From IMG/VR virus record IMGVR_UViG_3300045988_142974, positions 96,001 to 160,000 of that record: DNA of 64,000 nt; one strand, 5' to 3'. Under the pieces are notes generated by a model that was not told the DNA's origin, ran no database searches, and saw nothing but the letters and a program-made list of their open reading frames with translations. Every line of letters starts with the position of its first letter. Within the stretch, counting starts at the first letter, position 1. Source of the stretch: a virus. The position numbers were made by a program, and so were the translations under genes. Shown piece by piece: positions 4,074-46,042 of the stretch.

Positions 4074-4352
4074 GTGAATTATGAATTGAGCAGATATAAA
4101 AATGGAAATCCCAAATATGCAAGTAGATTTATATGTATGAGGTGTATGAGTGAAAATATGTTAGCTAGAGGCATTCAAAGGCAGCGACAAAGAGAACGAA
4201 AACACGTTAAAGACCTATATTGTTTGAGATGTGGTGAAATCACAAAATGCATTGAGGTTAGATTTTGTGACTCTTATGACGAGATTTTTGAAGTCGCAAA
4301 GATTAAAAGAGAGAATTATTACATAGATGATTATGAAAGAGAGGTTGATTAA
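4074..4352 (+). CDS. zinc-ribbon protein immediately upstream of integrase (possible directionality/accessory factor; start uncertain, TTG 4086 possible)
   Basis: ORF track; CMRC...CLRC motif; overlaps the integrase start region. Confidence 0.5.
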   Translation: MNYELSRYKNGNPKYASRFICMRCMSENMLARGIQRQRQRERKHVKDLYCLRCGEITKCIEVRFCDSYDEIFEVAKIKRENYYIDDYEREVD

Positions 4353-4353
4353 T

Positions 4354-13677: not shown

Positions 13678-13693
13678 TTGAGGAGATGAGAAC

Positions 13694-13903
13694 ATGGTAA
13701 TGAGAGATAAAAGTTATAAAACAGTAGAGATTATTACTCTTATATGTTTTTCAATTAGTGTTATTACAGTATGTATTACACGCTTTATTCCATTTATTTT
13801 TCTGACATTACTCACATTCCCAATTTCTTTTAAATTATTAAAAGGGAAGGTTGACAGCCTTCCCAAGAATAAGGAGGACAAAAAAATATGTCAATTAGTT
13901 TAG
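13694..13903 (+). CDS. small two-TM membrane protein
   Basis: ORF track; two hydrophobic stretches; overlaps the start of the first TerD gene. Confidence 0.5.
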   Translation: MVMRDKSYKTVEIITLICFSISVITVCITRFIPFIFLTLLTFPISFKLLKGKVDSLPKNKEDKKICQLV

Positions 13904-14466
13904 TTAAAGGTCAGAAGATTGACCTTACAAAATGCAATGCAGGTTTAAACAAAGTCGTATTTGGTCTTGGATGGGACACAAATAGATACGATGGTAATGC
14001 AGATTTCGATTTGGATGTATCAGCATTTTTTACTGATGATTCAGGAAAGGTAACAGGCGAACAGGATTTTGTATTTTATGGTCAGCCACAGCATCCAAGC
14101 GGAGCATTGATTTATTCTGGCGATAATAGAACAGGTGTAGGTGATGGCGATGACGAGACAATGATTGTTGAGTTAAATAAGATTCCATCTAATATTACAA
14201 AGATTAGCTTCTCAGCGACAATTTATGATGCAGAAAATCGTTTACAGAATTTTGGAATGGTTGATAATTCGTACATTAGAGCATACAACGCTGATACAAA
14301 TGAGGAACTTTTCAAATATGAACTTAATGAGGATTTCTCATTAGAGACAGGTGTTATTGCAGGTGAGTTGTATCGTAAGAACGGTGAATGGAAGTTTAAT
14401 GCAGTTGGTTCAGGTTACAATGGTGGTTTAGCTGCTATTGGTAGAAATTTTGGTCTTGATTTATAA
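13888..14466 (+). CDS. TerD-family stress protein (YceD-like)
   Basis: SLVKGQKIDLTK, GLGWD, DFDLD, GDNRTGVGDGDDE (Ca-binding motif), GEWKFNAVGSGYNGGL. Confidence 0.92.
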   Translation: MSISLVKGQKIDLTKCNAGLNKVVFGLGWDTNRYDGNADFDLDVSAFFTDDSGKVTGEQDFVFYGQPQHPSGALIYSGDNRTGVGDGDDETMIVELNKIPSNITKISFSATIYDAENRLQNFGMVDNSYIRAYNADTNEELFKYELNEDFSLETGVIAGELYRKNGEWKFNAVGSGYNGGLAAIGRNFGLDL

Positions 14467-14484
14467 AATGGAAGGAGAATATAT

Positions 14485-15060
14485 ATGTCAGTAAATTTAG
14501 TAAAAGGACAGAAAATTAATTTATCTAAGGAAGTAGCAGGTGGTCTTACAAAGATTATGGTAGGACTTGGATGGGATGCTGTTAAGAAAGGATTCTTTGG
14601 TTCTAAGCCAAACATTGATTGCGATGCTTCGGCAATTATTTTAGGAAAAGATGATAAGTATCGTACATGTGTTTATTATGGTGACAGATCAGCAGAAGAC
14701 AGATGTGTGTATCATCATGGCGACAACCTCACAGGAGATGGAGACGGTGATGATGAGCAGATTACAGTTGACCTTGCGAATATTACAAATAAGGTTGAGA
14801 AGATTGTATTTGTAGTAAATATCTATGATTGTATTTCAAGAAAGCAGGATTTTGGACTTATCAAGAATGCGTACATTAGACTTGTTGATGAGTCAACTGG
14901 TAAGGAAATTTGTAAATATAATCTTTCAGATGATTATGCTGGCAAGACAGCAATGGTATTTGCAGAGGTTTATAAGAAAGACGGAGAGTGGAAATTTAAC
15001 GCCATCGGTCAGGGAACAAATGATTCAAGTGTTAGCGAATTAACAAGAAGATACAAGTAG
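14485..15060 (+). CDS. TerD-family stress protein (divergent paralog)
   Basis: NLVKGQKINLSK, GLGWD, GDNLTGDGDGDDE, GEWKFNAIGQG. Confidence 0.9.
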   Translation: MSVNLVKGQKINLSKEVAGGLTKIMVGLGWDAVKKGFFGSKPNIDCDASAIILGKDDKYRTCVYYGDRSAEDRCVYHHGDNLTGDGDGDDEQITVDLANITNKVEKIVFVVNIYDCISRKQDFGLIKNAYIRLVDESTGKEICKYNLSDDYAGKTAMVFAEVYKKDGEWKFNAIGQGTNDSSVSELTRRYK

Positions 15061-15072
15061 GAGGATTTAATT

Positions 15073-15654
15073 ATGTCAGTTTCGTTAAGTAAAGGACAGA
15101 GAGTAGATTTAACAAAGGGTAGACCGTCATTAAAAAACATTCTTGTTGGACTTGGATGGGATATTAATCATTATGACGGAGAAGCAGATTTTGATCTCGA
15201 TGCCTCTGTGTTTATGACAAAAGAGAATGGTAAGGTTGGCAATGACGAGGATTTCATTTTCTATGGTAATCTTGAACATAGTTCAAAGAGTGTAAAGCAT
15301 ATGGGAGATAACCGTACAGGTGAGGGAGATGGAGATGATGAGGTTATTAAGATTAAACTTGATAAAATCCCATCAGACTATGAGACTCTTGCTGTGACGG
15401 TCACAATTTATGATGCTGAGAGTAGACTTCAGAACTTCGGTATGGTTGGAAATGCATATGTGCGTGTAGTAGACGAAGAGACAGGCGAGGAACTTATTCG
15501 TTTTGATTTAAGTGAAGACTTCTCTACCGAGACTGCGTTAGTCGTAGCTGAAATATATAAACATAATGGCGAATGGAAGTTTAAGGCTGTAGGAAGTGGC
15601 TATAACGGTGGATTAAAGGCATTATGTAATCAGTATGGAATTGATGCAGAGTAG
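15073..15654 (+). CDS. TerD-family stress protein (YceE-like)
   Basis: SLSKGQRVDLTK, GLGWD, DFDLD, GDNRTGEGDGDDE, GEWKFKAVGSGYNGGL. Confidence 0.92.
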   Translation: MSVSLSKGQRVDLTKGRPSLKNILVGLGWDINHYDGEADFDLDASVFMTKENGKVGNDEDFIFYGNLEHSSKSVKHMGDNRTGEGDGDDEVIKIKLDKIPSDYETLAVTVTIYDAESRLQNFGMVGNAYVRVVDEETGEELIRFDLSEDFSTETALVVAEIYKHNGEWKFKAVGSGYNGGLKALCNQYGIDAE

Positions 15655-15663
15655 GAGGATTGT

Positions 15664-16413
15664 ATGACAAATTTTATGTTTATTATAATTGTGGTAATTG
15701 TATTAATTGCACTGATTCTTTTCTTTACTCCTTTTGGTAAACAGCTTAGAGTAAAGTTTAAAGGAAGAACAGATGAAGTAATGCGCCAGGATGCACAAAC
15801 ACCAGAAGGTGCTAGAGATTATTACAATGTAGCCATTAGAGAAAAGGAAGAATTTTATAACAAGGCTTCTGCTACATATGCAGAGATTTCAGGAAAGCGT
15901 GACACAGCAGAGAAAGATTTATACCAGGCGAACAAAGATATTATGCGTGTTACACAGCAGATTAACGCTTGTCTTGATGAGAACAAAGAAGATGAAGCAA
16001 TGCAGTATGCAATGAAGAAGTCTACTTTGGAGAATAAGATTAATGTGCTAAAAGATACAATCGAAGAGATGAAAGAAGCACAGGCTCATCAGAAAGACAT
16101 TCGTGATCAGGCAGCCGAAGAATTGCAGAAACTTAAAGAGGAAAAGGAACAGGTTCTTTTTCAGATGGAAGCTGATAGTCAGATTATCGAACTTCATCAG
16201 AGTATGGACAGTCTCAATACCAACAATGAGAGTGATAGAATGCTTGAAAGAGTTCGTGAAGGAGCAAGAAAGACAAGAGAACGTGCAGAAGGAAGTAGAA
16301 TTGCATATGATTCTAGCGCACAGGCTAATGAGAGAAGACTTGCTAATTCTGAAAGAGAGCGCAATGCTCGTCAGATTCTTGATGATATGAAGAGACAGAG
16401 AGGTAATAAGTAA
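15664..16413 (+). CDS. PspA/IM30-like coiled-coil protein with N-terminal TM anchor
   Basis: N-terminal hydrophobic helix followed by a long heptad-rich region resembling PspA (…ENKEDEAMQYAMKKSTLENKINVLKDTIEE…). A TelA-like assignment cannot be excluded. Confidence 0.55.
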   Translation: MTNFMFIIIVVIVLIALILFFTPFGKQLRVKFKGRTDEVMRQDAQTPEGARDYYNVAIREKEEFYNKASATYAEISGKRDTAEKDLYQANKDIMRVTQQINACLDENKEDEAMQYAMKKSTLENKINVLKDTIEEMKEAQAHQKDIRDQAAEELQKLKEEKEQVLFQMEADSQIIELHQSMDSLNTNNESDRMLERVREGARKTRERAEGSRIAYDSSAQANERRLANSERERNARQILDDMKRQRGNK

Positions 16414-16505
16414 TGATTGTATTAAACATTGGAGTTTTCTTAATCTGTCTTGGTGTATGCTTTGGAGCAGGTTTTATCGTGGGAAAACGTAAGAAGAATA
16501 AATAA
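16413..16505 (+). CDS. 30-aa hydrophobic peptide (single TM + KRKKNK tail), translationally coupled
   Basis: Hand translation MIVLNIGVFLICLGVCFGAGFIVGKRKKNK*; TAATG overlap with the 15664..16413 stop. Confidence 0.4.
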   Translation: MIVLNIGVFLICLGVCFGAGFIVGKRKKNK

Positions 16506-16641
16506 TTTAAGGGTTGGTAGGTGTTACAGCCTACTAGCTCTATCAAAGGGTAATAAAATAGACCTTTTAATTTATAAAACGGAGAATATAACATTAGAAA
16601 CAATTAACAAAAATCAATATAAGAAAGAAGAGGTACAAAAT

Positions 16642-18705
16642 ATGGACGGATTTATGATGTTTAAAAAGGCTTTGCAGAAGCACTTCGATGAAATGCAGAA
16701 AGAGGCTACACATTTATTTGAGGTAAATGTAGATAAGGATGAATTATGGAATACATATCTTGATAGCTTTCCTGCCGGTACAAATGAGATTTTCAGAGAG
16801 CGTAGAGAACATGATTGCAGTTGTTGTAGACAGTTTATCAAGAATATTGGTTCTGCTGTCACCATTAAGGATAATCAGATTCACACAATCTGGGAACTGA
16901 ATCTTGGTGATACAACATATCAGCCAGTATGCGATGCACTTGACGCTTTTGTAAAGGCTCATATAGTTACAGATATTTATACAACTAAGTTCCCTAAGAT
17001 TGGTACAGATTTTAATTTTGAGGAAATCAATGGAAAGTCTCATAAGTGGGATCATTTCTTCTTAGAGCTTCCAAGTAAGTTTGTAAATAGAAGTAGCCGT
17101 TCCAACGAGGAAGTTAAAGGACAGTTCAGAGATACAAGAAATGTATTTAAGCGTTCTCTTGATGAGATTACTATGGATGCACTCGATACAATTCTTGAAC
17201 TTATCAACTCAAATACACTTTACAAGGGTGAAGAATGGAAGGGAGTACTCACAGAATTTAAGAAGTATAAGAAGGAATACGATAAGCTGGCTTCTGATAC
17301 TGAAAAGGATTTATATGCTTGGGAGAAGTCGGTAACGGCAGGTATGGCTATCGGTAGAATTAGAAATCATTCTATTGGAACACTTCTTATCAATGTAAGT
17401 GAGGATATGGATCTTGACACAGCAGTTAAGAAGTATGAGCAGATTGTCGCTCCAAGTAATTATAAAAGACCAAAGGCTATTTTTACAAAGAAAATGCTTG
17501 AGGATGCAAAGAAGACCATTACAGAACTCGGTTATATGGATTCATTACAGAGAAGATTTGCTAATCTGAATGATATTACTGTAAATAATGTACTGTTCTC
17601 AAATAAGAGTGCTGCAAGAAGAATGGTAGGTGCAGATGATATTTTTGGTCAGATGGAAAAGGATGTTGCTGTAAGTCCTAAGAAGTTTTCTAAGGTTGAA
17701 GAGATTTCAGCACAGGATTTCATTGATAAGGTACTTCCAACTGCAAAGGAGATTGAAGCTTTTGTAGAGAATAAACATGAGAAGAACTTTGTTTCTATGA
17801 TTGCACCTGTAAATCCAGATGCTAAGACAATGTTTAAATGGAACAATGGATTATCTTGGGCTTATTCAGGAAACATCACCGACTCTGATATGAAGCAGAA
17901 TGTAAAAGCTGCTGGCGGTAATGTTGACGGTGTTCTTAGATTTTCAATCATGTGGAATGAAGGACAGAATGATAACAGCGATCTTGATGCGCATTGTAAA
18001 GAACCTGATGGTAACGAGATTTATTTCAGTAATTGTAGAAAACCAGAAACTTCAAGATGTGGAGGTCAGTTAGATATTGATATTACACGCCCTATGACGC
18101 AGATGGCAGGAAAACCTTCTGTGGAAAATATTACATGGGCAGATATGTCACGTATGAAGCCAGGTGTTTATAAGTTTTTTGTTAATCAGTTTGCAGCGAG
18201 AGGAAGTAAAGGATTTAAGGCAGAAATTGAATTCAATGGTGAGATTTTTGCGTTTGAATACAATAGTCCTGTTTCTGGTAATGTTCAGGTGGCAGAAGTT
18301 ACACTTGACGAGAATGGCAACTTCTCAATTAAGGAAAAGCTGTCTGGAAGTTCATCTATTTCAAGTCGTGAAATTTGGGGTGTAAATACAAATCAGTTTG
18401 TTCCTGTATCAGTAATTAGTTACAGTCCAAACTATTTTGACGAGCAGGATGGAATTGGTCATAGACATTTATTTTTCTTCCTGAAGGATTGTGTAAATAG
18501 CGAAGAGCCTAATGGATTCTATCTTGAGTTCCTTGATAATGATTTAATGAAGCATAAGAGAGTGTTCGAGGCTTTAGGTGCTAAGTGTCATGTAGAAGAT
18601 ACTGATGATCAGCTTTCAGGAATTGGTTTTTCGATGACAAAGAGAGCAGATTTAGTTGTTAAGGTTAAGGGCGCAATAGAGCGTGTAATGAAGATTAAGT
18701 TTTAA
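16642..18705 (+). CDS. large conserved-looking protein of unknown function in the TerD module (687 aa)
   Basis: ORF track, trimmed to MDGFMMFKK after SD GAAGAGG. N-terminal HDCSCC motif. The C-terminal segment has a TerD-reminiscent DLDAH...GGQLDID pattern. Confidence 0.7.
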   Translation: MDGFMMFKKALQKHFDEMQKEATHLFEVNVDKDELWNTYLDSFPAGTNEIFRERREHDCSCCRQFIKNIGSAVTIKDNQIHTIWELNLGDTTYQPVCDALDAFVKAHIVTDIYTTKFPKIGTDFNFEEINGKSHKWDHFFLELPSKFVNRSSRSNEEVKGQFRDTRNVFKRSLDEITMDALDTILELINSNTLYKGEEWKGVLTEFKKYKKEYDKLASDTEKDLYAWEKSVTAGMAIGRIRNHSIGTLLINVSEDMDLDTAVKKYEQIVAPSNYKRPKAIFTKKMLEDAKKTITELGYMDSLQRRFANLNDITVNNVLFSNKSAARRMVGADDIFGQMEKDVAVSPKKFSKVEEISAQDFIDKVLPTAKEIEAFVENKHEKNFVSMIAPVNPDAKTMFKWNNGLSWAYSGNITDSDMKQNVKAAGGNVDGVLRFSIMWNEGQNDNSDLDAHCKEPDGNEIYFSNCRKPETSRCGGQLDIDITRPMTQMAGKPSVENITWADMSRMKPGVYKFFVNQFAARGSKGFKAEIEFNGEIFAFEYNSPVSGNVQVAEVTLDENGNFSIKEKLSGSSSISSREIWGVNTNQFVPVSVISYSPNYFDEQDGIGHRHLFFFLKDCVNSEEPNGFYLEFLDNDLMKHKRVFEALGAKCHVEDTDDQLSGIGFSMTKRADLVVKVKGAIERVMKIKF

Positions 18706-18726
18706 TTAGAAAAGGAGATTATTATT

Positions 18727-19116
18727 ATGACAAACAACGAATTATTTATCAATGCAACAAGAGCAAACTATCAGTTCCCATTCAGAGGAATGATTAACGT
18801 AATTGATTTGTGGGATTTATCTCTCACAAATCTGGACTCAGTGTTTAAGACACTCAATGCAGAAGTAAAGAAGTCTGAGGAAGAAAGTCTTCTAAATACC
18901 AAGTCAAAGGAAGATGAGGAGATTTCTAACAAGATTGAAATTGTTAAGTATATTGTTGACGTGAAGCTGGATGAGAAGAAGAAGAGAGAAGACGCTAAGA
19001 AAAATGCTGAGATGAGACAGAGATTGCTTGAAATCAAAGCTAAGAGACAGGATGCAGCACTTGAGAATATGTCTGATGAGGATCTGGATAAGGCACTTGC
19101 AGAATTAAGTGAGTAA
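18727..19116 (+). CDS. hypothetical charged coiled-coil protein
   Basis: ORF track; SD AAGGAG upstream. Confidence 0.6.
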   Translation: MTNNELFINATRANYQFPFRGMINVIDLWDLSLTNLDSVFKTLNAEVKKSEEESLLNTKSKEDEEISNKIEIVKYIVDVKLDEKKKREDAKKNAEMRQRLLEIKAKRQDAALENMSDEDLDKALAELSE

Positions 19117-19125
19117 TTGTTATAA

Positions 19126-19177
19126 ATATACCATATATAGTATTAAAAATAAACGATATATACTATATATGGTATAT
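19126..19177. terminator. perfect 18-bp inverted repeat hairpin (terminator-like)
   Basis: ATATACCATATATAGTAT (19126-19143) / ATACTATATATGGTATAT (19160-19177), 16-nt loop, followed by ATATTTT. Confidence 0.6.
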
Positions 19178-19290
19178 ATTTTACATTAGAATGAATCGCA
19201 CATTTCTTTATGAAATAGATAATTTAATACATATATTAGAAAAATTCAAAAAAGAATGTCCTGAGCATATTGGAGAATGGAGATAACATT

Positions 19291-19839
19291 ATGACGAATA
19301 AAGAGCAAAATAATTTAAGCAAATACATAGCATTAATTCTTAGACACAGACCTGATGTTATTGGTATCGCATTAGATGAACATGGTTGGGCTAACGTGTC
19401 AGATCTATTAAAAGGAATCAATAAAACTCAGACGATTACAATGAAAATGCTTGAAAAAATTGTAGAAGAAGATTCTAAACAGAGATATTCATTTAATCGA
19501 GAGAAGACGCTTATAAGAGCAAATCAAGGTCATTCTATAAAAGTTGATGTAGAATTGAAAGAGTGTATGCCACCAGATATTTTATATCATGGAACGGGTG
19601 TCAAATATTGCTCTTCAATCAATAAACAAGGGTTAATATCCAAGAGTCGTTTATATGTCCATCTATCAAAAGATATTGAAACAGCAACAAATGTTGGCAG
19701 TAGACATGGAGAACCGTTTATTTATAAGGTTCGAGCAAAAGATATGTATAATGATGGATATAAATTCTTTTTATCTCAAAATGGGGTATGGCTTACAAAA
19801 GAAGTACCAATCTGTTATTTAGATGCGTTCTCGAAATAA
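19291..19839 (+). CDS. kptA: RNA 2'-phosphotransferase Tpt1/KptA
   Basis: Near-collinear with E. coli KptA by eye: [55 protein letters not shown]. Confidence 0.9.
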
Positions 19840-19910
19840 GGACAACAAGGACATTCCAAACTTCAAGGAACGAGTTGAAACAGATATATAAAATTTTGGA
19901 GGTTAAGACA

Positions 19911-20939
19911 ATGACAATTGAACAGATTAAGGACAAATTAAAATCAAAAGAGTATGACTTCCTGAGAACAGATAAGAATTTGGGTAACAATATCATTATC
20001 TTAACTCTTGGTGGAAGTTATGCATATGGAACAAATAATGAGGGTAGCGATTTAGATATTCGTGGTTGTGCTTTGAATAGCAAGATGCAGATTCTTACAA
20101 ATGAGAATTTTGAGCAGTTTGTAAACAATGAGACAGACACAACCATTTATGCCTTTAATAAGTTAGTAGCTTTGTTAAGTAATACAAACCCTAACACAAT
20201 AGAAATGCTTGGAAATAAGCCAGAACACTATTTCTATGTATCTCCTATTGGTCAGGAACTTATTGACAATGCGCATTTATTTTTATCAAAGAGAGCTTGT
20301 CATTCGTTTGGCGGTTATGCTAATCAGCAATTATACAGATTAAATCAGAAAGCTGCACATCAGATGTCGCAGTCTGAATTAGAGAAACATATTCTAAAGA
20401 CTCTTGAATTTATGCAGACTGACTTCACAAAGAAATATACACCATATGAAGATGATTCTATGAAATTATATATTGATAAAGCTGTGCAGGAAGGCTACGA
20501 TACAGAAATCTTTATGGATATAAATCTTCATCATTACCCATTAAGAGATTATTGTTCTATGTGGAATGAGCTTCAGAATACAGTTCGTCAATATGGAAAA
20601 ATTGGTAAGAGAAATGAAAAAGCAATTGAACATGGTAAAATTGCTAAACATTCAATGCATCTTATTCGACTGTATATGATGTGCTTAGATATTCTTGAAA
20701 AAGAAAGAATAATTACATACAGAGAAGATGAGCATAATTTACTAATGGATATTCGCAATGGCAAGTATTTGGATAGCAACGATCAGCCAATCCCAGAATT
20801 CTTTGAAATGGTAAATGATTATGAAAAGAGATTAGATTATGCGAAGAAAAACACAAGTCTTCCTGATAATCCTAATTATAAGGCTATCAATGAATTTGTT
20901 GCTAGTGTAAATGAAAGGGTGGTAAAAGGTGAAATCTAA
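19911..20939 (+). CDS. RlaP-type (PF10127-like, Pol-beta superfamily) nucleotidyltransferase
   Basis: LTLGGSYAYGTNNEGSDLDIRGC minimal NTase motif. Trimmed to the ATG after GGAGG. Confidence 0.65.
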   Translation: MTIEQIKDKLKSKEYDFLRTDKNLGNNIIILTLGGSYAYGTNNEGSDLDIRGCALNSKMQILTNENFEQFVNNETDTTIYAFNKLVALLSNTNPNTIEMLGNKPEHYFYVSPIGQELIDNAHLFLSKRACHSFGGYANQQLYRLNQKAAHQMSQSELEKHILKTLEFMQTDFTKKYTPYEDDSMKLYIDKAVQEGYDTEIFMDINLHHYPLRDYCSMWNELQNTVRQYGKIGKRNEKAIEHGKIAKHSMHLIRLYMMCLDILEKERIITYREDEHNLLMDIRNGKYLDSNDQPIPEFFEMVNDYEKRLDYAKKNTSLPDNPNYKAINEFVASVNERVVKGEI

Positions 20940-22296
20940 TTTGAAGATTGAAATTCCATCTGGTGCAAATGAAATTATCCATAGTCTACAAAATAATGGA
21001 TATGAAGCTTTCTTAGTCGGAGGATGTGTAAGAGATAGTATTCTTGGCAGACCAATTCACGATTATGACATTACAACTTCTGCCACGCCAGATGAGATGA
21101 TGGAAGTATTCAAGGACAAGAGAATTATTGAAACTGGATTACAGCATGGAACTATCACAATTTTAATTGACGGTGAAGGATATGAATGTACCACTTACAG
21201 AATTGACGGTAATTACTCAGATAGTCGTAGACCTGATAGCGTAACATTTACACGAAATCTTAAAGAAGATTTAAAGCGTAGAGATTTTACAATTAATGCA
21301 ATGGCTTACAATGATGAAGTTGGTCTTATAGATCCGTTTAATGGTATGGAAGATATTAAATACCACAAGATTAGATGTGTTGGCAGAGCAGAAGACAGAT
21401 TTTCAGAAGATGCATTAAGAATTTTACGTGCCATTCGGTTTGCCTCACAGTTGGGATTTGTCCTTGAACCTGATACAGATTGGCATATTTCTAAAATGTA
21501 TAAGAATTTGGAGAATATATCTATTGAAAGGATCAATAGTGAATTTTGTAAAATTGCTGCATCGAGTGATTTCTGTGTACAAATGGTCTTATATCACGAA
21601 GTATTCTCGTTGTTCATTCCTGAAATTAAAGATATGTTTGGTTTTCAACAGAATAATCCATATCACATGTATGATGTATGGAATCATACCGTACATGCAA
21701 TAGAATATTGTGAATCCGATGATTTAGTAACAAGATTGGCAGTATTCTTTCACGATTTTGGTAAGCCACACTGTTATCAAGATGGAGAAGATGGTATCAG
21801 ACACTTTAAAGGTCATGGAAGAGTAAGTGCTGATATGACCAATGAGATTATGAAACGTCTTAGATTTGACAATGATACAAGAGAAAAGGTCATTGAATTA
21901 GTCTATTATCATGATGCTACTTTTGAGGTGGGAAAGAAATATGTCAAGAGATGGCTTAATAAAATTGGAGAAGAACAGTTCAGAAGGTTATTAAATGTTC
22001 GTAGAGCTGATATTAAAGCACAAGCAGACATGGCTCAGGAAACAAGATTACAGAAAATTGATAACATCGAATATATTTTAGAAGAAGTCTTACAGGATGA
22101 TGAATGTTTTTCTCTAAAGGATTTAGCAGTTAATGGAAAAGATGTAATGGATACAATGCTCATTAAAAGTGGAAAAGAAGTTGGCTACTGGCTCAATGAA
22201 ATCTTAACTCGTGTAATAGATGGGAGATTAAAAAATGATAAAGAGGATCTTATTTATTGGATGACTGGTATTACAGATGGTTGGATAGAATATTAA
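20929..22296 (+). CDS. cca: CCA-adding tRNA nucleotidyltransferase with C-terminal HD domain
   Basis: FLVGGCVRDSILGR, DYDITT, RDFTINA, and HD motif FFHDFGKP. The GTG start overlaps the previous stop. Confidence 0.88.
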   Translation: MKSNLKIEIPSGANEIIHSLQNNGYEAFLVGGCVRDSILGRPIHDYDITTSATPDEMMEVFKDKRIIETGLQHGTITILIDGEGYECTTYRIDGNYSDSRRPDSVTFTRNLKEDLKRRDFTINAMAYNDEVGLIDPFNGMEDIKYHKIRCVGRAEDRFSEDALRILRAIRFASQLGFVLEPDTDWHISKMYKNLENISIERINSEFCKIAASSDFCVQMVLYHEVFSLFIPEIKDMFGFQQNNPYHMYDVWNHTVHAIEYCESDDLVTRLAVFFHDFGKPHCYQDGEDGIRHFKGHGRVSADMTNEIMKRLRFDNDTREKVIELVYYHDATFEVGKKYVKRWLNKIGEEQFRRLLNVRRADIKAQADMAQETRLQKIDNIEYILEEVLQDDECFSLKDLAVNGKDVMDTMLIKSGKEVGYWLNEILTRVIDGRLKNDKEDLIYWMTGITDGWIEY

Positions 22297-22306
22297 CGGA
22301 GGTAAT

Positions 22307-23047
22307 ATGTACGAAAAATTAAAAGAATATATAAAAGAATCAAATAATATTGTATTCTTTGGTGGAGCAGGTGTATCAACTGAAAGTGGTATTCCTGATT
22401 TTCGTTCCAAGGATGGATTATATAATCAGCATGACGTTCAGTTTGATAAATACGAACCAGAATATCTTTTGAGTAGAGAATGTTTATATAATAATCCAAA
22501 GATATTTTATGAGTTCTATCGTCAGAAGATGGATACAAGAAATGTTGAACCAAACGTTACTCATAAGGTGCTTGCTAAGATGGAAGAAATAGGTAAGTTG
22601 AAAGCTATTGTAACACAGAATATTGATGGACTTCATCAGAAAGCTGGAAGTAAGAATGTCTTTGAGATTCATGGAACTACTCAGAAGAATTATTGTAGTA
22701 AGTGTAAGATGAAATATCATTCTGATTTCTTGTTTAACACTAAAGATGCTATTCCAAAGTGTGAATGTGGTGGGCTGATTAGACCTGATGTGACTTTATA
22801 CGGAGAGAATCTTCCTAACGAAGCTGTAAATGGAGCAATCAGAGCTATTCGAGATGCTGAAATGTTGATTATTGGTGGCACTTCATTAAAAGTTTATCCA
22901 GCAGCTCATTATATTTCATATTTTAGTGGTAGACATTTGGTTGTTATCAATATGGAGAAAATTCAAGTGTTGTTGAATGAGGATACAGATCTGATGATTG
23001 TTGATTCGTTAGGTAATGTGTTCAGTGAAATTGATAAATGGATGTGA
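22307..23047 (+). CDS. Sir2-family NAD-dependent protein deacylase/ADP-ribosyltransferase
   Basis: GGAGVSTESGIPDFRS, QNIDGLH, catalytic FEIHGT, zinc ribbon CSKC...CECGG, GTSLKVYPA. Confidence 0.88.
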   Translation: MYEKLKEYIKESNNIVFFGGAGVSTESGIPDFRSKDGLYNQHDVQFDKYEPEYLLSRECLYNNPKIFYEFYRQKMDTRNVEPNVTHKVLAKMEEIGKLKAIVTQNIDGLHQKAGSKNVFEIHGTTQKNYCSKCKMKYHSDFLFNTKDAIPKCECGGLIRPDVTLYGENLPNEAVNGAIRAIRDAEMLIIGGTSLKVYPAAHYISYFSGRHLVVINMEKIQVLLNEDTDLMIVDSLGNVFSEIDKWM

Positions 23048-23060
23048 GGTGAGAGAATAA

Positions 23061-24295: not shown

Positions 24296-25219
24296 TTGAC
24301 AGAGAATAATGAAAAAAATAATTCTCAAGGGCTACGAGTATTAAGTTTATGTGGTGGCGTTGAAACAGGATTGTATGCGTTACAGAAGCTCGGAATACCT
24401 ATAAGAGAATATCATACATATGAAATTTTGCCAGAAGCCATAGCAGTTTCTCAGTACCATTTTCCGTTTGTGGTACATCATGGCGATTTATATGAAGCGG
24501 ATTTTGAAGAGTTTAAAGGATTTGATTTACTGTTGGCAGGAACTTGTTGCCAGTCACTTTCAAGAGTGCGAATTGAAAGTAAAGAGGTCAATAATGGTCT
24601 TGATGGTAAGTCAGGAATTTTCTTTAAAGCAATTGAGTGTCTTAGGGCAATTCAGCCCAAATATTTCATGTTTGAAAATGTAATACCAAGTAGTGACGAA
24701 GATCTGAAGACAATGACAGAATGCATTGGTGTAGAACCTATTTTGATTAATTCAGGAAAATTTTCTGCGCAGAGTCGTGAAAGATATTATTGGACAAACA
24801 TACCATTAGGTAAATTACCTGATAAATCTCCATTAGTTTTAAAAGATATTATGGAGAATAGTGTAGATGAGAAATATTTCTATAAGAAAGATTTTGAAAT
24901 CTTGGATATGAGTAAACGTGTATGTGCAGAGTTAAAAGTTAATTCTATGGAAATGAATAGAAGAATTTATAATCCAGATTTTAAGTGCTGCACATTAACT
25001 TGTATAAATGGTGGATATCATGAAAAGAAAGTATTAGATAGTAGCAGACCACGAAAACTTACAGAAGTTGAATATGAAAGATTACAGGGATTACCTGATA
25101 ATTTTACAAAAGTTCAGCTTAATGGTCGTTGGTTATCATACTCAAAAAGATGTAGTTTGATGGGCAATGGATGGAATGAATCTACTGTTGAATGGATCTT
25201 GAGTGGGTTAAGAGAATAA
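24296..25219 (+). CDS. DNA (cytosine-5)-methyltransferase
   Basis: Motif I LSLCGGVETG, motif IV GTCCQSLS, FMFENV, QSRERYYW, motif X GNGW. TTG start. Confidence 0.88.
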   Translation: MTENNEKNNSQGLRVLSLCGGVETGLYALQKLGIPIREYHTYEILPEAIAVSQYHFPFVVHHGDLYEADFEEFKGFDLLLAGTCCQSLSRVRIESKEVNNGLDGKSGIFFKAIECLRAIQPKYFMFENVIPSSDEDLKTMTECIGVEPILINSGKFSAQSRERYYWTNIPLGKLPDKSPLVLKDIMENSVDEKYFYKKDFEILDMSKRVCAELKVNSMEMNRRIYNPDFKCCTLTCINGGYHEKKVLDSSRPRKLTEVEYERLQGLPDNFTKVQLNGRWLSYSKRCSLMGNGWNESTVEWILSGLRE

Positions 25220-26487: not shown

Positions 26488-27270
26488 ATGGCATATATAA
26501 AACAATATTGGCAGAATAAAGAACAAAGAGCGACAATTGCTCGTGAACACACAAAAGAGATGCGGAATAAATATGGTCGTTGTATTCAAACTTCAATTTT
26601 GGGTACAAAAATTTATGATACAAATTCATTTAATAGGGATTTTGAAGAGAATATCGAAGATAAAGATACCAAGATTATTGTAGAGGATATTGATAGTGTA
26701 GGTGCTGTAATGAAATACGGCAATCCAAGTACAGCAGTTCTTAATTTTTCTTCATATAAAAATCCAGGTGGAATGTTTTTAAATGGTAGTAAGGCACAGG
26801 AAGAGTGCTTATGTCACGAATCATTCTTATACAATGTGTTGAGTCAGTTTGTATTAAAGTTTTATGATTGGAATAATCGACATAAGAATAAGGCTTTATA
26901 TTTGAATAGAGGATTATTTTCTCCCGGTGTTTGGTTCTTTAGAGAGAATAGCCATGTAGAGTGTAGTGTTATTACTTGTGCTGCTCCAAATAAGTCGGCT
27001 GCTCAGAAATATCAGAACGTGTCAGACGAAGAGAATACTAAAGCATTAAGAAGTCGAATTAAATTTGTTCTTAATATGGCGAAAGACAACAATGTGAGCA
27101 CTCTTATTTTAGGAGCTTATGGATGTGGAGTATTTGGGCAAGACGCAACAGAAGTAGCGAATATATTTAAAGAATATTTAACTACTACTCATAAATGCTT
27201 CGATACTGTTGTATTTGCTGTTCCAAATGGCAGAGATGGTAACTATGAGAAGTTTGTAAAAGTATTTTAA
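26488..27270 (+). CDS. TIGR02452-family macro/PARG-like protein
   Basis: AVLNFSSYKNPGGMFLNGSKAQEECLCHESFLYNVL and LILGAYGCGVFGQD signatures. Confidence 0.75.
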   Translation: MAYIKQYWQNKEQRATIAREHTKEMRNKYGRCIQTSILGTKIYDTNSFNRDFEENIEDKDTKIIVEDIDSVGAVMKYGNPSTAVLNFSSYKNPGGMFLNGSKAQEECLCHESFLYNVLSQFVLKFYDWNNRHKNKALYLNRGLFSPGVWFFRENSHVECSVITCAAPNKSAAQKYQNVSDEENTKALRSRIKFVLNMAKDNNVSTLILGAYGCGVFGQDATEVANIFKEYLTTTHKCFDTVVFAVPNGRDGNYEKFVKVF

Positions 27271-29458: not shown

Positions 29459-30334
29459 ATGTTAGAGATTAACAAAATATACAACGAAGATTGCTTTGAA
29501 GGTATGAAAAAGATTGATGATAAGTCAATAGATTTTATTTTTACGGATCTTCCTTATAATACGACTAATAATTCTTGGGAATGTGAAATGCCGTTAAATG
29601 ATTATGTCGAGTTATCAGGTCAATATTTTTATGAAACAGATTTATTCAAGTTAGCTCAAGTAACAAATAGCAGTCTCGAATATACAAGAGATTGGTTCTA
29701 CGAGAATAAGAAAGATGGCTTATGGAATCATTACAATCGAATCATCAAAGATAACGGTTGTATTGCACTATGGGCGCAGTCACCTTTTGATAAGAAACTC
29801 GCTTGTAGTAATGAAAAGCTATATCGCTATGAATGGATTATCGAAAAAACCAAAGCAACTGGTCATCTAAATGCAAAGAAAATGCCTATGAAGGCACACG
29901 AAAATGTCTTAATTTTCTATAAGAAACTCCCTACTTACAATCCACAAATGACAGAAGGACATACACCTGTTCATTCTTATACAAAACATACAACAGATGG
30001 TAGCTGTTATGGTGCTACAAAGACTGGTATTTCAGGTGGTGGTAGTACACAAAGATACCCAAGAGATGTTCAGCAGTTCAAGTGGGACACTCAGAAAAGT
30101 AGCTTACATCAATGTCAAAAGCCTGTTGAAGCGTGTGAGTATTTTATTAAAACCTATACTAATCCAGGAGATTTAGTTCTTGATTCGTGTGCAGGAAGTT
30201 GTACCACTGCAGTTGCAGCTTTGAATACAGGTAGAAATTACATATGTTTTGAGAAGGACAAGGATATTTTTGAGGTTGGAAGTAAGAGAGTAGCTGAATA
30301 TGCTAATCAGGATTTATTGATAAGTGCAACTTAA
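29459..30334 (+). CDS. N4-cytosine/N6-adenine DNA methyltransferase (beta-class, PF01555-like)
   Basis: FTDLPYNT (motif IV) precedes DSCAGSCTT (motif I). Confidence 0.85.
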   Translation: MLEINKIYNEDCFEGMKKIDDKSIDFIFTDLPYNTTNNSWECEMPLNDYVELSGQYFYETDLFKLAQVTNSSLEYTRDWFYENKKDGLWNHYNRIIKDNGCIALWAQSPFDKKLACSNEKLYRYEWIIEKTKATGHLNAKKMPMKAHENVLIFYKKLPTYNPQMTEGHTPVHSYTKHTTDGSCYGATKTGISGGGSTQRYPRDVQQFKWDTQKSSLHQCQKPVEACEYFIKTYTNPGDLVLDSCAGSCTTAVAALNTGRNYICFEKDKDIFEVGSKRVAEYANQDLLISAT

Positions 30335-30407: not shown

Positions 30408-31142
30408 ATGAAATATATGGGTTCAAAATCTCGTATAGTTGATAATATTTTACCGATTATTCAAGAAAGATTGCGAGATTATAATATCAAAACATACATA
30501 GAGCCATTTTGCGGCGGCTGTAATGTAATCGACAAAGTTCAATGTGATATAAAAATCGCTTCTGACAATCATAAATATCTTATTGAAATGTTCAAGAATC
30601 TAAATCAGATTCAAAATCTCCCAGAATTTATTACAAAAGAACATTACTCAGATGTAAGAAAGTGTTTTAATAAAGGATTATCCCAATATCCAGATTGGTA
30701 TATTGGTGCAGTTGGCTTTCTTTCAAGCTATAACGGAAGATTCTTTGATGGAGGTTACTCAGGTATCGTATATACAAAAGCTGGAACTGAAAGAAATTAT
30801 TACGATGAAGCTAAGAGAAATTTGTTAGAGCAGATTCCAAGGTTAGAAGATATTCAATTCCAATGTGGAGATTATAAAGAGTTATATTCTGATAAAGTTG
30901 ACTGCTTATTTTATTGCGATATTCCATATAAGGGTACGAAACAGTATGGATCAAGTAAGAATTTTGATTATGACAGATTCTGGAATTGGGCTGAGAAGAT
31001 GAGCGAGAAAAATATTGTCTTAGTCAGTGAGCATGAAGCTCCTTCTGGATGGGAATGTATTTGGCAACAGGAAGTCAAGAGAACGATTGACAATACGAAG
31101 CAAGTTAAAGCAGTAGAAAAGTTATTTGAAATTAGAGAATAA
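30408..31142 (+). CDS. N6-adenine DNA methyltransferase (D12/Dam-like, alpha-class)
   Basis: YMGSKSRI, EPFCGGCNV, CDIPY. Confidence 0.85.
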   Translation: MKYMGSKSRIVDNILPIIQERLRDYNIKTYIEPFCGGCNVIDKVQCDIKIASDNHKYLIEMFKNLNQIQNLPEFITKEHYSDVRKCFNKGLSQYPDWYIGAVGFLSSYNGRFFDGGYSGIVYTKAGTERNYYDEAKRNLLEQIPRLEDIQFQCGDYKELYSDKVDCLFYCDIPYKGTKQYGSSKNFDYDRFWNWAEKMSEKNIVLVSEHEAPSGWECIWQQEVKRTIDNTKQVKAVEKLFEIRE

Positions 31143-34290: not shown

Positions 34291-36489
34291 ATGAGAGTAT
34301 TACTTTTATTAAGAGGCTCTGCTGGTTGTGGAAAATCAACTTGGATTGAGCAGAATGGATTAAAGTCATATGCATTATCAGCGGATGATATTAGATTACT
34401 GTGTCAGAGTCCAGTATTACAACCTGATGGAACAGTAGGGATTAGTCAGAGTAATGATAAAACCGTTTGGAAGACATTGTTTAATTTACTTGAAATTCGT
34501 ATGCAGAAAGGTGAGTTTATAGTAATTGATGCTACAAATTCAAAAACATCTGAGATAAACAGATATAAGCAGATGTGTGAAACATACAGATATAGGATGT
34601 ATTGTGTCGATTTTACAGATATTCCAATTGAAGAAGTAAAGAAAAGAAATGTCAACAGAGAGGAATTAAAGAGAGTTCCTGATGAAGCAATCGAAAAAAT
34701 GTATTCACGTTTCAAGACTCAGAAAATTCCTTCTGGTATTAAGGTAATTAAGCCAGATGAGTTAGATTCTATTTGGATGAAGTTATTTGATTTATCTGAA
34801 TATAAGAAAATTCATCATATCGGAGACGTTCATGGTTGCTATACAGCGTTAAAGAAATATATTGATGACAATGGCGGTATTAAAGATGATGAATTTTACA
34901 TCTTCTGCGGTGATTATGTAGATAGAGGTATTGAAAATGCTGATGTTGTTAAGTATCTGATTTCTATTAAGGATAAGAAAAATGTCCTTATGCTTGAAGG
35001 AAATCATGAAAGATGGCTTTGGTTATGGGCTAATGATTGTACAAGTAAGTCTAAAGAATTTGAACTTGTAACAAAGCCACAGTTAGAAGAAGCAAAGATT
35101 GATAAAAAGGATGTACGTCAGCTTTATAGAAAATTTGGACAGTGTGCTTATTATAGATATGGAGAAAATATTTATTTAGTAACTCATGCAGGTTTAAGTG
35201 TATTACCAGATAATCTTACATTTGTTGCAACAGATCAGATGATTCATGGAGTTGGTAATTACAATGATTTTGAAAAAATTGCAGAGACATTTGCTGAAAA
35301 AATGCCATCAAATTATTATCAAATTCATGGTCATAGAAACACTAAACAAGTTCCAATTCGTGTGAATGATAGAGTATTTAATCTTGAAGGAAGAGTTGAA
35401 TTTGGTGGGAATTTAAGATGTGTTCAGCTTGATAAAGATGGTATGTACGAAATAGAAATTCATAATGAAGTATTCAAAACACCCGAAATGAGAGAAGAAC
35501 AGAGTGTAACAAATAGTTCTGTTGCTGATGTAATTATTTCATTAAGAGCAAATAGATACATTCAGGAAAAGAAATTTGGTAATATTTCTTCTTTCAATTT
35601 TACGAACAAGGCTTTTTACGACAAGGTATGGGACGAGCAGACTACAAAAGCAAGAGGTTTATATCTTGACACATTTAAGGGAAAGGTAGTAGCAAGGGCT
35701 TATGATAAGTTCTTTAACATCAACGAGCGACCAGAAACAAAATTTGATATGCTACAGAATAAGCTTCAATTCCCTGTTACAGCATATGTAAAAGAAAATG
35801 GTTATTTAGGTATTGTAAGCTACGATGAATACAATGATGATTTATTTATTGCAAGTAAATCTACTATTGACAGTCAGTTTGCACAATGGCTCAAAGAAGC
35901 TATTTACAATCAGATTACAGAAGAAAATAGAGAAAAAATGAAACAGTATGCGAAAGATAATAATGTGTCATTTGTATTTGAAAATGTTGATATGAAAAAT
36001 GATCCGCATATTATTGAATATCTTGAAAGTAAGTTATATCTATTAGATATTGTTTATAATCAGATGGATTTTGCTAAATATGATTATGAAACTATGTGTG
36101 ATATTGCTCATCAGCTTGGATTAACTCCAAAAGAAAAAGCATTTGAGATTGCTAATTGGCAGGATTTTTATGATTGGTACTATGATATTCTTGAAGAGGA
36201 TTATGAATACAATGGTAGAAAAATTGAGGGATTTGTAATCGAAGATAGTGTTGGATATATGACAAAACTGAAGCTTGCATATTATAACTTTTGGAAGTTT
36301 ATGAGAGCAATTTCACATGAAGCTATTAGAAATGGATATATTAAAAAGACATCTGCTTTAACAACTCCTATTGCTAATGAGTATTATGCATGGGTAAGAA
36401 AGTTGCATGATGTCGATGATATTGATTCAATTCCAAAAGATATTTGTACATTGAGAAGATTATTTTTTAAAGACAAATTAGGAGAATAA
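34291..36489 (+). CDS. trifunctional RNA repair enzyme: polynucleotide kinase - metallophosphoesterase - RNA ligase (Pnkp-like)
   Basis: P-loop GSAGCGKST; calcineurin-type phosphatase motifs GDVHGC, GDYVDRG, GNHE, HGHRN; C-terminal ligase lysine motif VKENGYLG (KxxG, Rnl1/Trl1-like). Confidence 0.8.
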   Translation: MRVLLLLRGSAGCGKSTWIEQNGLKSYALSADDIRLLCQSPVLQPDGTVGISQSNDKTVWKTLFNLLEIRMQKGEFIVIDATNSKTSEINRYKQMCETYRYRMYCVDFTDIPIEEVKKRNVNREELKRVPDEAIEKMYSRFKTQKIPSGIKVIKPDELDSIWMKLFDLSEYKKIHHIGDVHGCYTALKKYIDDNGGIKDDEFYIFCGDYVDRGIENADVVKYLISIKDKKNVLMLEGNHERWLWLWANDCTSKSKEFELVTKPQLEEAKIDKKDVRQLYRKFGQCAYYRYGENIYLVTHAGLSVLPDNLTFVATDQMIHGVGNYNDFEKIAETFAEKMPSNYYQIHGHRNTKQVPIRVNDRVFNLEGRVEFGGNLRCVQLDKDGMYEIEIHNEVFKTPEMREEQSVTNSSVADVIISLRANRYIQEKKFGNISSFNFTNKAFYDKVWDEQTTKARGLYLDTFKGKVVARAYDKFFNINERPETKFDMLQNKLQFPVTAYVKENGYLGIVSYDEYNDDLFIASKSTIDSQFAQWLKEAIYNQITEENREKMKQYAKDNNVSFVFENVDMKNDPHIIEYLESKLYLLDIVYNQMDFAKYDYETMCDIAHQLGLTPKEKAFEIANWQDFYDWYYDILEEDYEYNGRKIEGFVIEDSVGYMTKLKLAYYNFWKFMRAISHEAIRNGYIKKTSALTTPIANEYYAWVRKLHDVDDIDSIPKDICTLRRLFFKDKLGE

Positions 36490-40124: not shown

Positions 40125-40137
40125 AAAGAGGTGCAAT

Positions 40138-45184: not shown

Positions 45185-46042
45185 ATGCCAGTGCATGATG
45201 ATTTAGGCGTTAGGATGAAGACATTTTATGAGCAGATTTCAAAGATAAAACTGATGAGAAGGTGTCCGGTTGCTATCAGAATTGATGGAAAAGCGTTCCA
45301 CACATTCACAAGAGGATTTCAGAAGCCATTTGATGAAGTGCTAATTAAATCAATGCAGGAAACAATGAAATACTTATGTGAGAATATTCAGGGCTGTGTT
45401 CTTGGCTACACGCAGTCAGATGAGATTACATTAATCCTTGTTGATTATAAGAAGCTCACATCTTCAGCATGGTTTGATTACGAGGTACAGAAGATTTGCA
45501 GTATTGCGGCGAGTATGGCTACGATGGCATTTAATAAAGCTTTTGTAAAAGAAGTTAAAAAATATTCTTTTGAACTTAGTATGGGAATTCATACAGATGA
45601 AGAAAGAAGATTATTAGATATTTATCATAAAGCTATAGACAAAGGTGCAATGTTCGATGCTCGTTGTTTCAATATTCCAAAAGAAGAAGTAACAAATCTT
45701 TGCTATTGGAGACAATTAGATGCTTCTCGTAACTCAATTCAGATGGTAGGTCAAGCCAATTTCTCACATAAAGAATTACAGAATAAGTCATGTAATGATA
45801 TTCAGGATATGCTTATGAGTCAGAAAGGTATTAACTGGAACGATTTGCCTACTTATCAGAAGAGAGGAAGTTGCTGTGTAAGGAATAAGATTATCATTGA
45901 ATCTGATGGTGTTATGGCAACTGCACAATTAAGAGACACTTCTAGGTCTGAAAATGAGTGGATTATTGATACAGATATCCCTATTTTCAAAGGTGAAGGT
46001 AGAGAATATATTGATAGATTAGTTTTTGTTGGTGAAGAGTAA
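45185..46042 (+). CDS. Thg1-like protein (tRNA-His guanylyltransferase family, 3'-5' nucleotidyltransferase)
   Basis: AIRIDGKAFHTFT, GYTQSDEITL, FDARCFNIP, YWRQLDASRNS. Collinear with yeast Thg1 by eye. Confidence 0.85.
   Translation: MPVHDDLGVRMKTFYEQISKIKLMRRCPVAIRIDGKAFHTFTRGFQKPFDEVLIKSMQETMKYLCENIQGCVLGYTQSDEITLILVDYKKLTSSAWFDYEVQKICSIAASMATMAFNKAFVKEVKKYSFELSMGIHTDEERRLLDIYHKAIDKGAMFDARCFNIPKEEVTNLCYWRQLDASRNSIQMVGQANFSHKELQNKSCNDIQDMLMSQKGINWNDLPTYQKRGSCCVRNKIIIESDGVMATAQLRDTSRSENEWIIDTDIPIFKGEGREYIDRLVFVGEE

Follow-up and report, generated by a model that had tools for sequence, protein, structure and literature searches.

The subject of this report is a block of four genes at positions 19291-23047 of a 64-kb stretch of viral DNA (positions 96,001 to 160,000 of IMG/VR record IMGVR_UViG_3300045988_142974; hereafter 'the window'). 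An earlier note, made from the letters alone, had assigned the genes to Tpt1/KptA, RlaP, CCA-adding enzyme and Sir2 families and had proposed that they form a single NAD-linked operon for the repair of tRNA or other RNA ends. Searches with the corresponding hidden Markov models (PF01885, PF10127, PF01743 and PF02146) bear out all four family assignments, the catalytic motifs are intact in every case, and each gene also has a PHROG family of its own. The genes are as follows.

19291..19839, + strand: Tpt1/KptA RNA 2'-phosphotransferase, 182 amino acids (aa) (PF01885, E = 1.3e-46, 159 bits against a cut-off of 26)
19911..20939, + strand: RlaP-type Pol-beta nucleotidyltransferase, 342 aa (PF10127, E = 8.4e-14; phrog_388)
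20929..22296, + strand: class II CCA-adding tRNA nucleotidyltransferase with HD domain, 455 aa (PF01743, E = 4.7e-39)
22307..23047, + strand: Sir2/CobB-type NAD-dependent protein deacylase, 246 aa (PF02146, E = 3.5e-56)

The first protein is predicted to be an RNA 2'-phosphotransferase that uses NAD+. It passes the cut-off of the NCBIfam equivalog NF002014 (245.2 bits against 239) and matches PDB entry 7kw8 (E = 2.3e-45). Alignment to this structure reveals the Arg-His-Arg-Arg tetrad, represented by R18-H19 (LRHRP), R76 (IRANQGHS) and R120 (SRLYVHLS), which we take from the Tpt1 literature to be the catalytic residues. The RlaP-type protein exceeds the gathering cut-off of PF10127 (52.3 bits against 23) over the N-terminal half of the model only (positions 11-144 of 249), matches phrog_388 over its full length (E = 3.5e-50) and has no sequence-level match in the PDB. 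Residues G34-G35-S36, D47, D49 and D76 are invariant among 36 homologues of 53-79% identity, and three aspartates are the published criterion for RlaP (PMC12776372). The CCA enzyme combines a PolyA_pol head with PolyA_pol_RNAbd, HD and tRNA_NucTran2_2 domains, passes the equivalog NF009814 (327.8 bits against 290) and carries the motifs GGCVRD31, DYD45, RRD117 and EDALR160; its HD domain (PF01966, 31.2 bits against 22) reads FFHDFGKP.

The description of the four genes as packed head to tail is accurate for the later junctions, which are short, and not for the first, since 71 nt separate Tpt1 from RlaP. Direct reading of the sequence agrees with the proposed GTG start at 20929, which overlaps the end of the RlaP gene (TAA at 20937-20939) by 11 nt, and TTG at 20941 is an equally plausible start for the CCA gene. 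The 10-nt gap between the CCA and Sir2 genes is likewise as stated, and GGAGG lies inside it. However, such spacing is not specific to the block, because genes are tightly packed throughout the window: the median intergenic distance is 17 nt (95 gaps between the 96 genes on the + strand), and the packing is unchanged beyond Sir2.

A hairpin precedes the block:

19126..19177, + strand: AT-rich hairpin with a perfect 18-bp stem and a 16-nt loop (direct sequence and fold statistics)

The complete arms (19118-19143 and 19160-19185) are 26 nt long and 88% complementary, with the perfect core at 19126-19143 and 19160-19177. The predicted folding free energy is -23.7 kcal/mol (z = -4.96; 0/200 shuffles fold as well), and the structure lies directly 3' of the stop codon of the upstream gene (18727-19116, stop at 19116) and 113 nt 5' of the Tpt1 ATG. 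Thus the hairpin that the earlier note saw just before the block is real. It is not a specific mark of the block, because the segment that includes it (18700-19216) is 95% identical to relatives that carry either type of cassette described below, and so belongs to the conserved backbone. A scan for promoters and terminators was uninformative, as its counts equalled the expectation from shuffled sequence.

The window has a GC content of ~32% with nearly all coding on the + strand. It also encodes an integrase, DnaB, PolIII-alpha, RecD2 and several DNA methylases, which identify it as the replication-side or early part of a large temperate Lachnospiraceae phage. The source is a family of ~150-kb temperate phages of this host group that is common in human gut samples. 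Close RlaP homologues occur at 166 or more loci in IMG/VR, mostly on human-gut contigs of 90-215 kb, and another 37 more distant loci were found in GTDB (one genome per species), where most genomes are labelled Lachnospiraceae or other Clostridia and some loci lie inside chromosomes, for example those of [Clostridium] asparagiforme DSM 15981 and Mediterraneibacter hominis. A megablast comparison of the block with isolated phages returned no match at the DNA level.

Open reading frames (ORFs) of all fetched loci were clustered, and the slot occupied by the block was defined as the interval from the conserved 129-aa gene at 18727-19116 to the small genes downstream. Sixty-seven non-redundant loci contain this upstream anchor, and they display 17 architectures. 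The order of the slot is fixed and its content variable: an optional c17-Tpt1 pair is followed by RlaP (with or without c90) or by c15, then the CCA gene, then a DHH/DHHA1 phosphoesterase or a small ORF, then Sir2 and finally the small genes, where 'c' numbers denote our clusters. Each element is present or absent independently of the others. RlaP occupies its position at 35 loci versus 30 for the 183-aa c15 protein, and the two never co-occur (0/67). Tpt1 is present at 25 of the 67 loci, 20 of them with c15 and five with RlaP, and its usual context is a c17-Tpt1-c15 cassette that replaces RlaP. The CCA gene is found at 54 loci and Sir2 at 22, although the use of Sir2 among the search queries inflates the latter figure. 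All four genes occur together at only three of the 67 loci, including the window, and therefore the conserved four-gene operon that had been proposed is not borne out; the sole stable pair is RlaP-CCA.

The history of this particular arrangement is preserved at its breakpoints, which were mapped by pairwise blastn.

18700-19216: shared backbone including the hairpin (blastn)
19208-19823: last 75 nt of c17 plus Tpt1 (blastn)
19209..19283, + strand: c17 3' remnant of 75 nt, the last 25 codons (tblastn, c17 residues 55-79, 88% identity; no full ORF)
19826..19882, + strand: c15 5'-end remnant of 57 nt (blastn/tblastn, c15 residues 9-28, 75% identity)
19892-22148: RlaP-CCA cassette (blastn)
22281-23056: Sir2 cassette (blastn)

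The stubs of c17 and c15 at these breakpoints indicate that a recombination placed Tpt1 beside RlaP and removed the gene that normally follows Tpt1, and the c15 stub is the scar of the event that joined the two genes. The recombinant is not a one-off, because the identical Tpt1 protein recurs next to RlaP-CCA: it is present on at least 19 contigs, the ten that were examined come from ten different samples, and the order Tpt1-RlaP-CCA is found in every one of the ten that extends far enough downstream. Sir2 follows in only two of the seven that reach past the CCA gene. The exact junction sequence gave no match in IMG/VR, and the junction was found by the exact-protein look-up instead. In phiCD211, which has the closest Tpt1 of any isolated phage, the gene stands alone without synteny, as it does in Erwinia phage Ea35-70.

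The RlaP-CCA pair is the only stable functional unit within the coordinates of the block. The two genes are adjacent at 34 of the 35 RlaP loci of the close family and at 14 of the 37 GTDB prophage loci; at a fifteenth the CCA gene lies upstream with two small ORFs between. Such distant pairs extend down to 53% identity for RlaP and 36% for the CCA enzyme, with the CCA start within ~15 nt of the RlaP stop, and the two genes are probably translationally coupled. A looser linkage, 1.8 kb apart in one gene string, occurs in the vequintavirus Salmonella phage SSE121. The association with a ligase from which the RlaP family takes its name is absent here, where the nearest ligase is 13 kb downstream and the neighbour, in the window as in most relatives, is the CCA gene. 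In Pseudomonas, RlaP adds one or two nucleoside monophosphates (NMPs) to an RNA 3'-OH and is required if over-damaged tRNA is to become aminoacylated again (PMC12776372). The coupling is the most useful lead from this locus in that it gives the recently characterised RlaP activity a partner and a candidate substrate, the tRNA 3' end. Culturable lysogens with a related RlaP-CCA prophage exist, such as [Clostridium] asparagiforme DSM 15981.

The c15 family that takes the place of RlaP comprises proteins of ~183 aa (phrog_8839; 466 clusters at 50% identity), as at L085:8548-9099 and 29 other loci, and extends to Lactococcus 949-group phages and small Streptococcus prophages. It has no Pfam family and no PDB sequence match. 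Its conserved motifs are SRNKDNK, GE..R.Y.SVN.RD, KWLFDFD and TPNGYAVIV.HGFDTR. A first AlphaFold2 model from a shallow alignment was poor, with a predicted local distance difference test (pLDDT) score of 53; a deep alignment produced a model with a pLDDT of 97.8. This model resembles no PDB fold (template modelling (TM) score < 0.3) and, in BFVD, matches only uncharacterised phage proteins (TM 0.6-0.7). Guesses that c15 is a cREC, an AEP-like palm or a 2H protein are thus unsupported and were dropped. One member of the family is fused to DUF1653, a domain that is also found in a separate protein of the window (48671-49114).

Sir2 had been singled out in the earlier note as the most novel-looking part of the set. 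By its sequence it is instead a canonical deacylase of the cellular type, carried as an optional cassette. The protein passes the NF001752 equivalog for NAD-dependent protein deacylases (309.5 bits against 221), matches Sir2Tm (1yc5, E = 1.3e-45) and retains GAGVS, QNIDGLH, H122 and the Zn-binding residues C130, C133, C152 and C154. The gene is well established in this phage family, as the homologue search returned over 120 clusters (90% identity level) that share 81% identity or more with the window protein. Only such close phage variants and no cellular relatives came up, and NCBIfam cut-offs were used for its classification. Within the close family the gene sits in the array slot, usually directly after c15, the CCA gene or the small ORF that follows CCA; in a divergent subgroup (L190-L196 and L202) its context is different. 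There is no constant partner across relatives, the neighbours being the CCA gene and DUF551 in the window and c15, c49, the DHH phosphoesterase or a metallophosphoesterase elsewhere. Its most likely substrates would be acyl-lysines on proteins of the phage or its host, with no involvement of the other three gene products.

Three other identities for this protein were considered and set aside. A defence-type SIR2 NADase was ruled out, since no PADLOC defence SIR2 model (ThsA, DSR, SIR2-HerA and others) matches at E <= 1e-3. Membership in the divergent viral clade of 'RNA-repair' sirtuins, which is typified by rV5 gp080 and predicted to take the part of KptA in RNA repair (PMC9503650), was rejected because affinity to gp080 is weak (27% identity across 113 aa of the N-terminal part, E = 2e-10), and the window protein passes the deacylase cut-off whereas gp080 falls below every NCBIfam cut-off; moreover, the ligase, cREC/2H, MazG, HAD or Nudix neighbourhood typical of that clade is not seen around Sir2. 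A SirTM-type sirtuin-macro pair was also discarded, as 3.4 kb and seven genes separate the PARG/macro gene from Sir2, and the two vary independently.

The window contains other enzymes that could act on RNA ends or on ADP-ribose. The earlier note had named a kinase-phosphatase-ligase, a Thg1-like enzyme and a macro/PARG-like protein, all three of which are upheld by Pfam, NCBIfam or PHROG matches.

26488..27270, + strand: bacterial-type PARG/macro-fold protein (PF10021, E = 1.1e-26; TIGR02452, 191 bits against 50)
34291..36489, + strand: 5'-kinase, metallophosphoesterase and Rnl1-type ligase in one polypeptide (AAA_33, Metallophos and RNA_lig_T4_1, E = 1.2e-43)
45185..46042, + strand: Thg1-like 3'-5' nucleotidyltransferase (PF04446, E = 5.1e-31; weak Thg1C match)

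The three-domain protein matches phrog_8238 over its full length (E = 3.8e-224) and carries GSAGCGKS in the kinase, GDYVDRG and GNHE in the phosphoesterase and KENG in the ligase. It scores far below the equivalog cut-off for bacterial Pnkp (65 bits against 750), and the genes beside it include no detected Hen1. The window combines this protein with Tpt1. The PARG-like protein, encoded in the same variable early region as the block, is possibly an ADP-ribose eraser; a bacterial PARG removes the ADP-ribose that Tpt1-type enzymes place on 5'-phosphate ends (PMC11833690). In two relatives of the window type, an isochorismatase (nicotinamidase-like) gene lies a few kilobases downstream (L115, 10959-12549; L117, 11872-12549), and in L115 it is followed by phosphoribosyltransferase and NAMPT genes, which adds NAD-salvage functions to this variable region. 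Among the window ORFs scanned, no gene of this kind was seen.

No tRNA gene was called in the 64-kb window by ARAGORN or Rfam. Relatives carry genes for tRNA-Lys(UUU), tRNA-Gln(UUG) and also tRNA-Met 4-7 kb upstream of the slot, and CCA is not encoded in the adjacent tRNA-Gln and tRNA-Lys genes of locus L006 (3393-3543). Anticodon nucleases target tRNAs such as tRNA-Lys(UUU) and tRNA-Gln(UUG). The nearby tRNA genes without CCA fit a conflict centred on tRNA, and fit equally well plain tRNA maturation by the CCA enzyme. At L005:3229-3379 the same tRNA pair was called with the anticodon UUA (an ochre suppressor) and the four-base anticodon UUUA. A tRNA-like RNA that had been suggested at 988-1097 received no ARAGORN call and no Rfam match at the gathering score or at E <= 10. 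This 110-nt element has an acceptor-like closing stem, a T-loop-like hairpin (GGUUCAAGUCC) and extra arms (fold z = -2.3), and it overlaps a 51-codon ORF (986-1141).

Considering these observations together, we favour, with a probability of roughly 0.55, the reading that the block is one permutation of an array of accessory genes for RNA-end processing and NAD use, which is prone to recombination and lies in the early region of the phage. The RNA-end theme of the earlier note survives and is reinforced by the DHH/DHHA1 phosphoesterase and metallophosphoesterase that the slot holds in relatives and by the nearby tRNA genes; its single four-gene unit does not. The substrates, order of action and role in counter-defence that we infer can be outlined as follows. 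A host nuclease would trim or cut tRNA 3' ends, after which the HD domain of the CCA enzyme might clear a 2',3'-cyclic phosphate or 3'-phosphate, RlaP might restore one or two nucleotides at the 3'-OH and the CCA enzyme could rebuild CCA. 5' ends and breaks in the anticodon loop would fall, in this genome, to the Thg1-like enzyme and the kinase-phosphatase-ligase. Tpt1 would be an optional addition that either removes 2'-phosphates in an NAD+-dependent manner or ADP-ribosylates 5'-phosphate ends, with the PARG-like protein as a candidate for clearing the resulting ADP-ribose products. Sir2 would be a separate lysine-deacylase cassette with no mechanistic tie to the other three.

Several observations weigh against this reading. 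The RNA ligase is 13 kb from the block and was found at 33 loci versus 166 for RlaP in pattern-based scans. Moreover, the 32 IMG/VR contigs with Tpt1 and the 33 with the kinase-phosphatase-ligase do not overlap at all in these scans, in which some contigs are partial and many exceed 100 kb. Because the ligase is rarer and shares no contig with Tpt1, the genes are not inherited as a kit. The exact ligase protein is present on two contigs, neither of them a Tpt1 contig, although a single substitution would hide a match. Furthermore, a T4-type heal-and-seal pathway leaves no 2'-phosphate, so that Tpt1 has no obvious substrate; no cyclic phosphodiesterase that leaves a 2'-phosphate was identified in the window, nor any 2H or cREC protein among the ORFs scanned. 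No CCA gene is present in the neighbourhood examined at 22 of the 37 GTDB RlaP prophage loci. Finally, the locus counts were ascertained with RlaP, Tpt1 and Sir2 as queries and are uncorrected for shared ancestry; since the loci were gathered with three of the genes in question and are phylogenetically related, Fisher tests on cassette co-occurrence are descriptive only.

The original proposal would join the four genes into one NAD-linked operon for tRNA repair. On this view Sir2 would be an integral part of the pathway and its second step to consume NAD, and could for instance act on RNA 2'-phosphates in the manner of KptA. In favour of this, the genes adjoin one another on a single strand and the gaps between them are short, the same order recurs in two other assemblies (L116 and L119), Sir2 usually resides in this array outside the divergent subgroup, and sirtuin-centred RNA repair in phages has been predicted (Iyer et al. 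2022, PMC9503650). Nevertheless, an integral operon is very unlikely when the complete set of four is confined to three of 67 loci, Sir2 is found both with and without Tpt1 and CCA, each of which also appears where Sir2 is missing, and the Tpt1-RlaP junction is a recombination scar. In addition, Sir2 co-occurs with KptA rather than replacing it and passes the cellular deacylase cut-off that its distant rV5 relative fails. A proposal that NAD+ and ADP-ribose are themselves the currency of conflict is comparably improbable. According to this idea, Tpt1 would ADP-ribosylate 5'-phosphate ends of RNA or DNA as a cap or in a toxin-like manner, PARG would erase these marks or those of host ADP-ribosyltransferases, Sir2 would consume further NAD, and the salvage genes of relatives would offset the loss. 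Although Tpt1-type modification of 5'-phosphates is reversed by bacterial PARGs (PMC11833690), a PARG-like gene lies 3.4 kb downstream, and L115 and L117 carry the isochorismatase (L115 with the phosphoribosyltransferase and NAMPT as well), the three genes vary independently among relatives, Tpt1 scores as a bona fide RNA 2'-phosphotransferase by the equivalog cut-off, and the conserved RlaP-CCA core of the slot works without NAD.

Two simpler explanations set aside repair altogether. One is that the CCA enzyme, perhaps with RlaP, matures phage tRNAs whose genes lack CCA and so aids translation of an AT-rich genome. The upstream tRNA-Gln, tRNA-Lys and tRNA-Met genes of relatives, the missing CCA in L006 and the commonness of CCA enzymes in tRNA-rich phages (529 phage records matched) are all consistent with this idea. 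However, the window has no tRNA gene, L098 and L170 have tRNAs and a slot without a CCA gene, and RlaP, Tpt1, the ligase and Thg1 would be left unexplained. Furthermore, a host in which part of the tRNA genes lack an encoded CCA, as in many Firmicutes, needs a CCA enzyme of its own, and we regard maturation alone as unlikely. It is similarly doubtful that the slot is a recombination hotspot for functionally unlinked accessory genes whose RNA theme is a coincidence of annotation. The 17 architectures at 67 loci point in that direction, as do the unannotated small ORFs, DNA methylases and other cargo of the region, the c15 homologues of Streptococcus prophages and Lactococcus phages that lack RNA-repair neighbours, and the solitary Tpt1 genes of phiCD211 and Ea35-70. 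Against it, RlaP-CCA adjacency outlasts deep divergence, the annotated slot elements are mostly RNA-end enzymes (Tpt1, RlaP, CCA, DHH phosphoesterase and metallophosphoesterase), and element order is constant across architectures. At the other extreme is a more specific proposal in three parts: RlaP and CCA form a coupled machine that rebuilds acceptor ends cut beyond CCA, with RlaP restoring the discriminator or other missing nucleotides before the CCA enzyme finishes; c15 is a non-homologous substitute for RlaP; and a canonical sirtuin was recruited, for example to reverse an acylation that blocks tRNA or repair enzymes. That all three parts hold jointly is quite improbable. The shuffled array of accessory genes remains the reading we prefer.

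Phage RNA-repair kits are thought to counter tRNA-cleaving defences of the host, and few have been tested outside T4. Such gene sets were reportedly described by Burroughs and Aravind in 2016 by means of comparative genomics. In T4, Pnkp and Rnl1 counter the PrrC anticodon nuclease. The window likewise encodes a kinase, a phosphatase and an Rnl1-type ligase. However, these are fused in one polypeptide (34291-36489) located 13 kb from the block, the phosphatase is a metallophosphoesterase rather than a HAD enzyme, and the protein is not the bacterial Pnkp equivalog. In fungal and plant Trl1-Tpt1 tRNA splicing, Tpt1 uses NAD+ to remove the 2'-phosphate at the junction; the window Tpt1 has the same catalytic tetrad but is not accompanied there by an identified phosphodiesterase that would leave such a phosphate.

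The closest precedents come from comparative studies of phages whose kits combine RNA ligase, polynucleotide kinase, calcineurin-like phosphatase, KptA, RlaP, CCA enzyme and Thg1 with Macro or 2H proteins for clean-up (Iyer et al. 2021, Viruses 13:63, PMC7824862; Iyer et al. 2022, Viruses 14:1977, PMC9503650). The role proposed for them, including a sirtuin-centred variant, is to undo tRNA cleavage by host nucleases (PMC7824862, PMC9503650). Since both the kits and sirtuin-linked RNA repair had been described, the concept put forward for this block is not new: the component list and the counter-nuclease role are the same, and the block is one shuffled version of the described toolkit rather than a new four-gene machine or a new kind of system. 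What differs is the host lineage and genome type (a ~150-kb temperate phage of Lachnospiraceae, not a jumbo or proteobacterial phage), the coupling of RlaP to a CCA gene where the literature ties it to a ligase, and the organisation as a cassette-shuffling slot in which gene content differs between near-identical genomes. This natural series of near-isogenic gut phages, which differ only in their RNA-end and NAD enzyme cassettes, is an experimental resource.

Individual components invite similar comparisons. The phage RlaP shares PF10127, the GGS motif and three aspartates with the Pseudomonas protein of the RtcB-RlaP-RtcA operon (PMC12776372) and would be expected to add one or two NMPs in the same way, but it is a 342-aa protein that matches the N-terminal half of the Pfam model only, lacks a PDB sequence match and has a CCA enzyme rather than RtcB and RtcA for a neighbour. 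In phages rV5, SP15 and Serratia BF, a Sir2-family gene likewise lies amid RNA-end enzymes (PMC9503650), the order in rV5 being phosphoesterase, ATPase, Rnl1, hypothetical protein, Sir2 and MazG. Unlike rV5-type sirtuins, the window protein is of the canonical cellular type, retains its Zn ribbon and stands alongside KptA rather than substituting for it. The ligase-PARG-HD-Pnk operon of Deinococcus radiodurans (PMC11833690) also encodes a bacterial-type PARG with healing and sealing enzymes, whereas the corresponding window genes are spread across 10 kb, and in relatives each varies on its own.

Other genes of the window include the following.

4327-5334: tyrosine integrase
48671-49114: DUF1653 protein
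62549-63109: ClpP-like protease

An RlmN/Cfr-like RNA methylase had been listed among the repair functions, yet the protein reaches only 41 bits against a cut-off of 290. It is one of two weak radical-SAM proteins (41107-41838, and 42180-43202, the latter being the one partly similar to RlmN/Cfr) in a group of genes at 39075-43930, which further includes a 349-aa PAPS-reductase-like protein and a weak GIY-YIG match that lies below threshold. Only PAPS_reduct passes a curated family cut-off, and the group may be a nucleic-acid modification cluster. Farther upstream, positions 11077-16413 contain the gene of an 866-aa P-type cation ATPase, a tandem run of three TerD-domain genes (13888-15654) and a gene similar to PspA/IM30, resembling a Ter-type stress or tellurite-resistance module carried on a phage, directly upstream of a conserved DUF8224 gene (16450-18705). 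Four DNA methyltransferases are encoded within 8 kb (24296-25219, 29459-30334, 30408-31142 and 31692-32528), comprising one C5-cytosine enzyme, one of the N6/N4 class and two D12-class N6-adenine enzymes. In relatives, the position of the C5 methylase is occupied by alternative, non-orthologous methylases of 29-36% identity.

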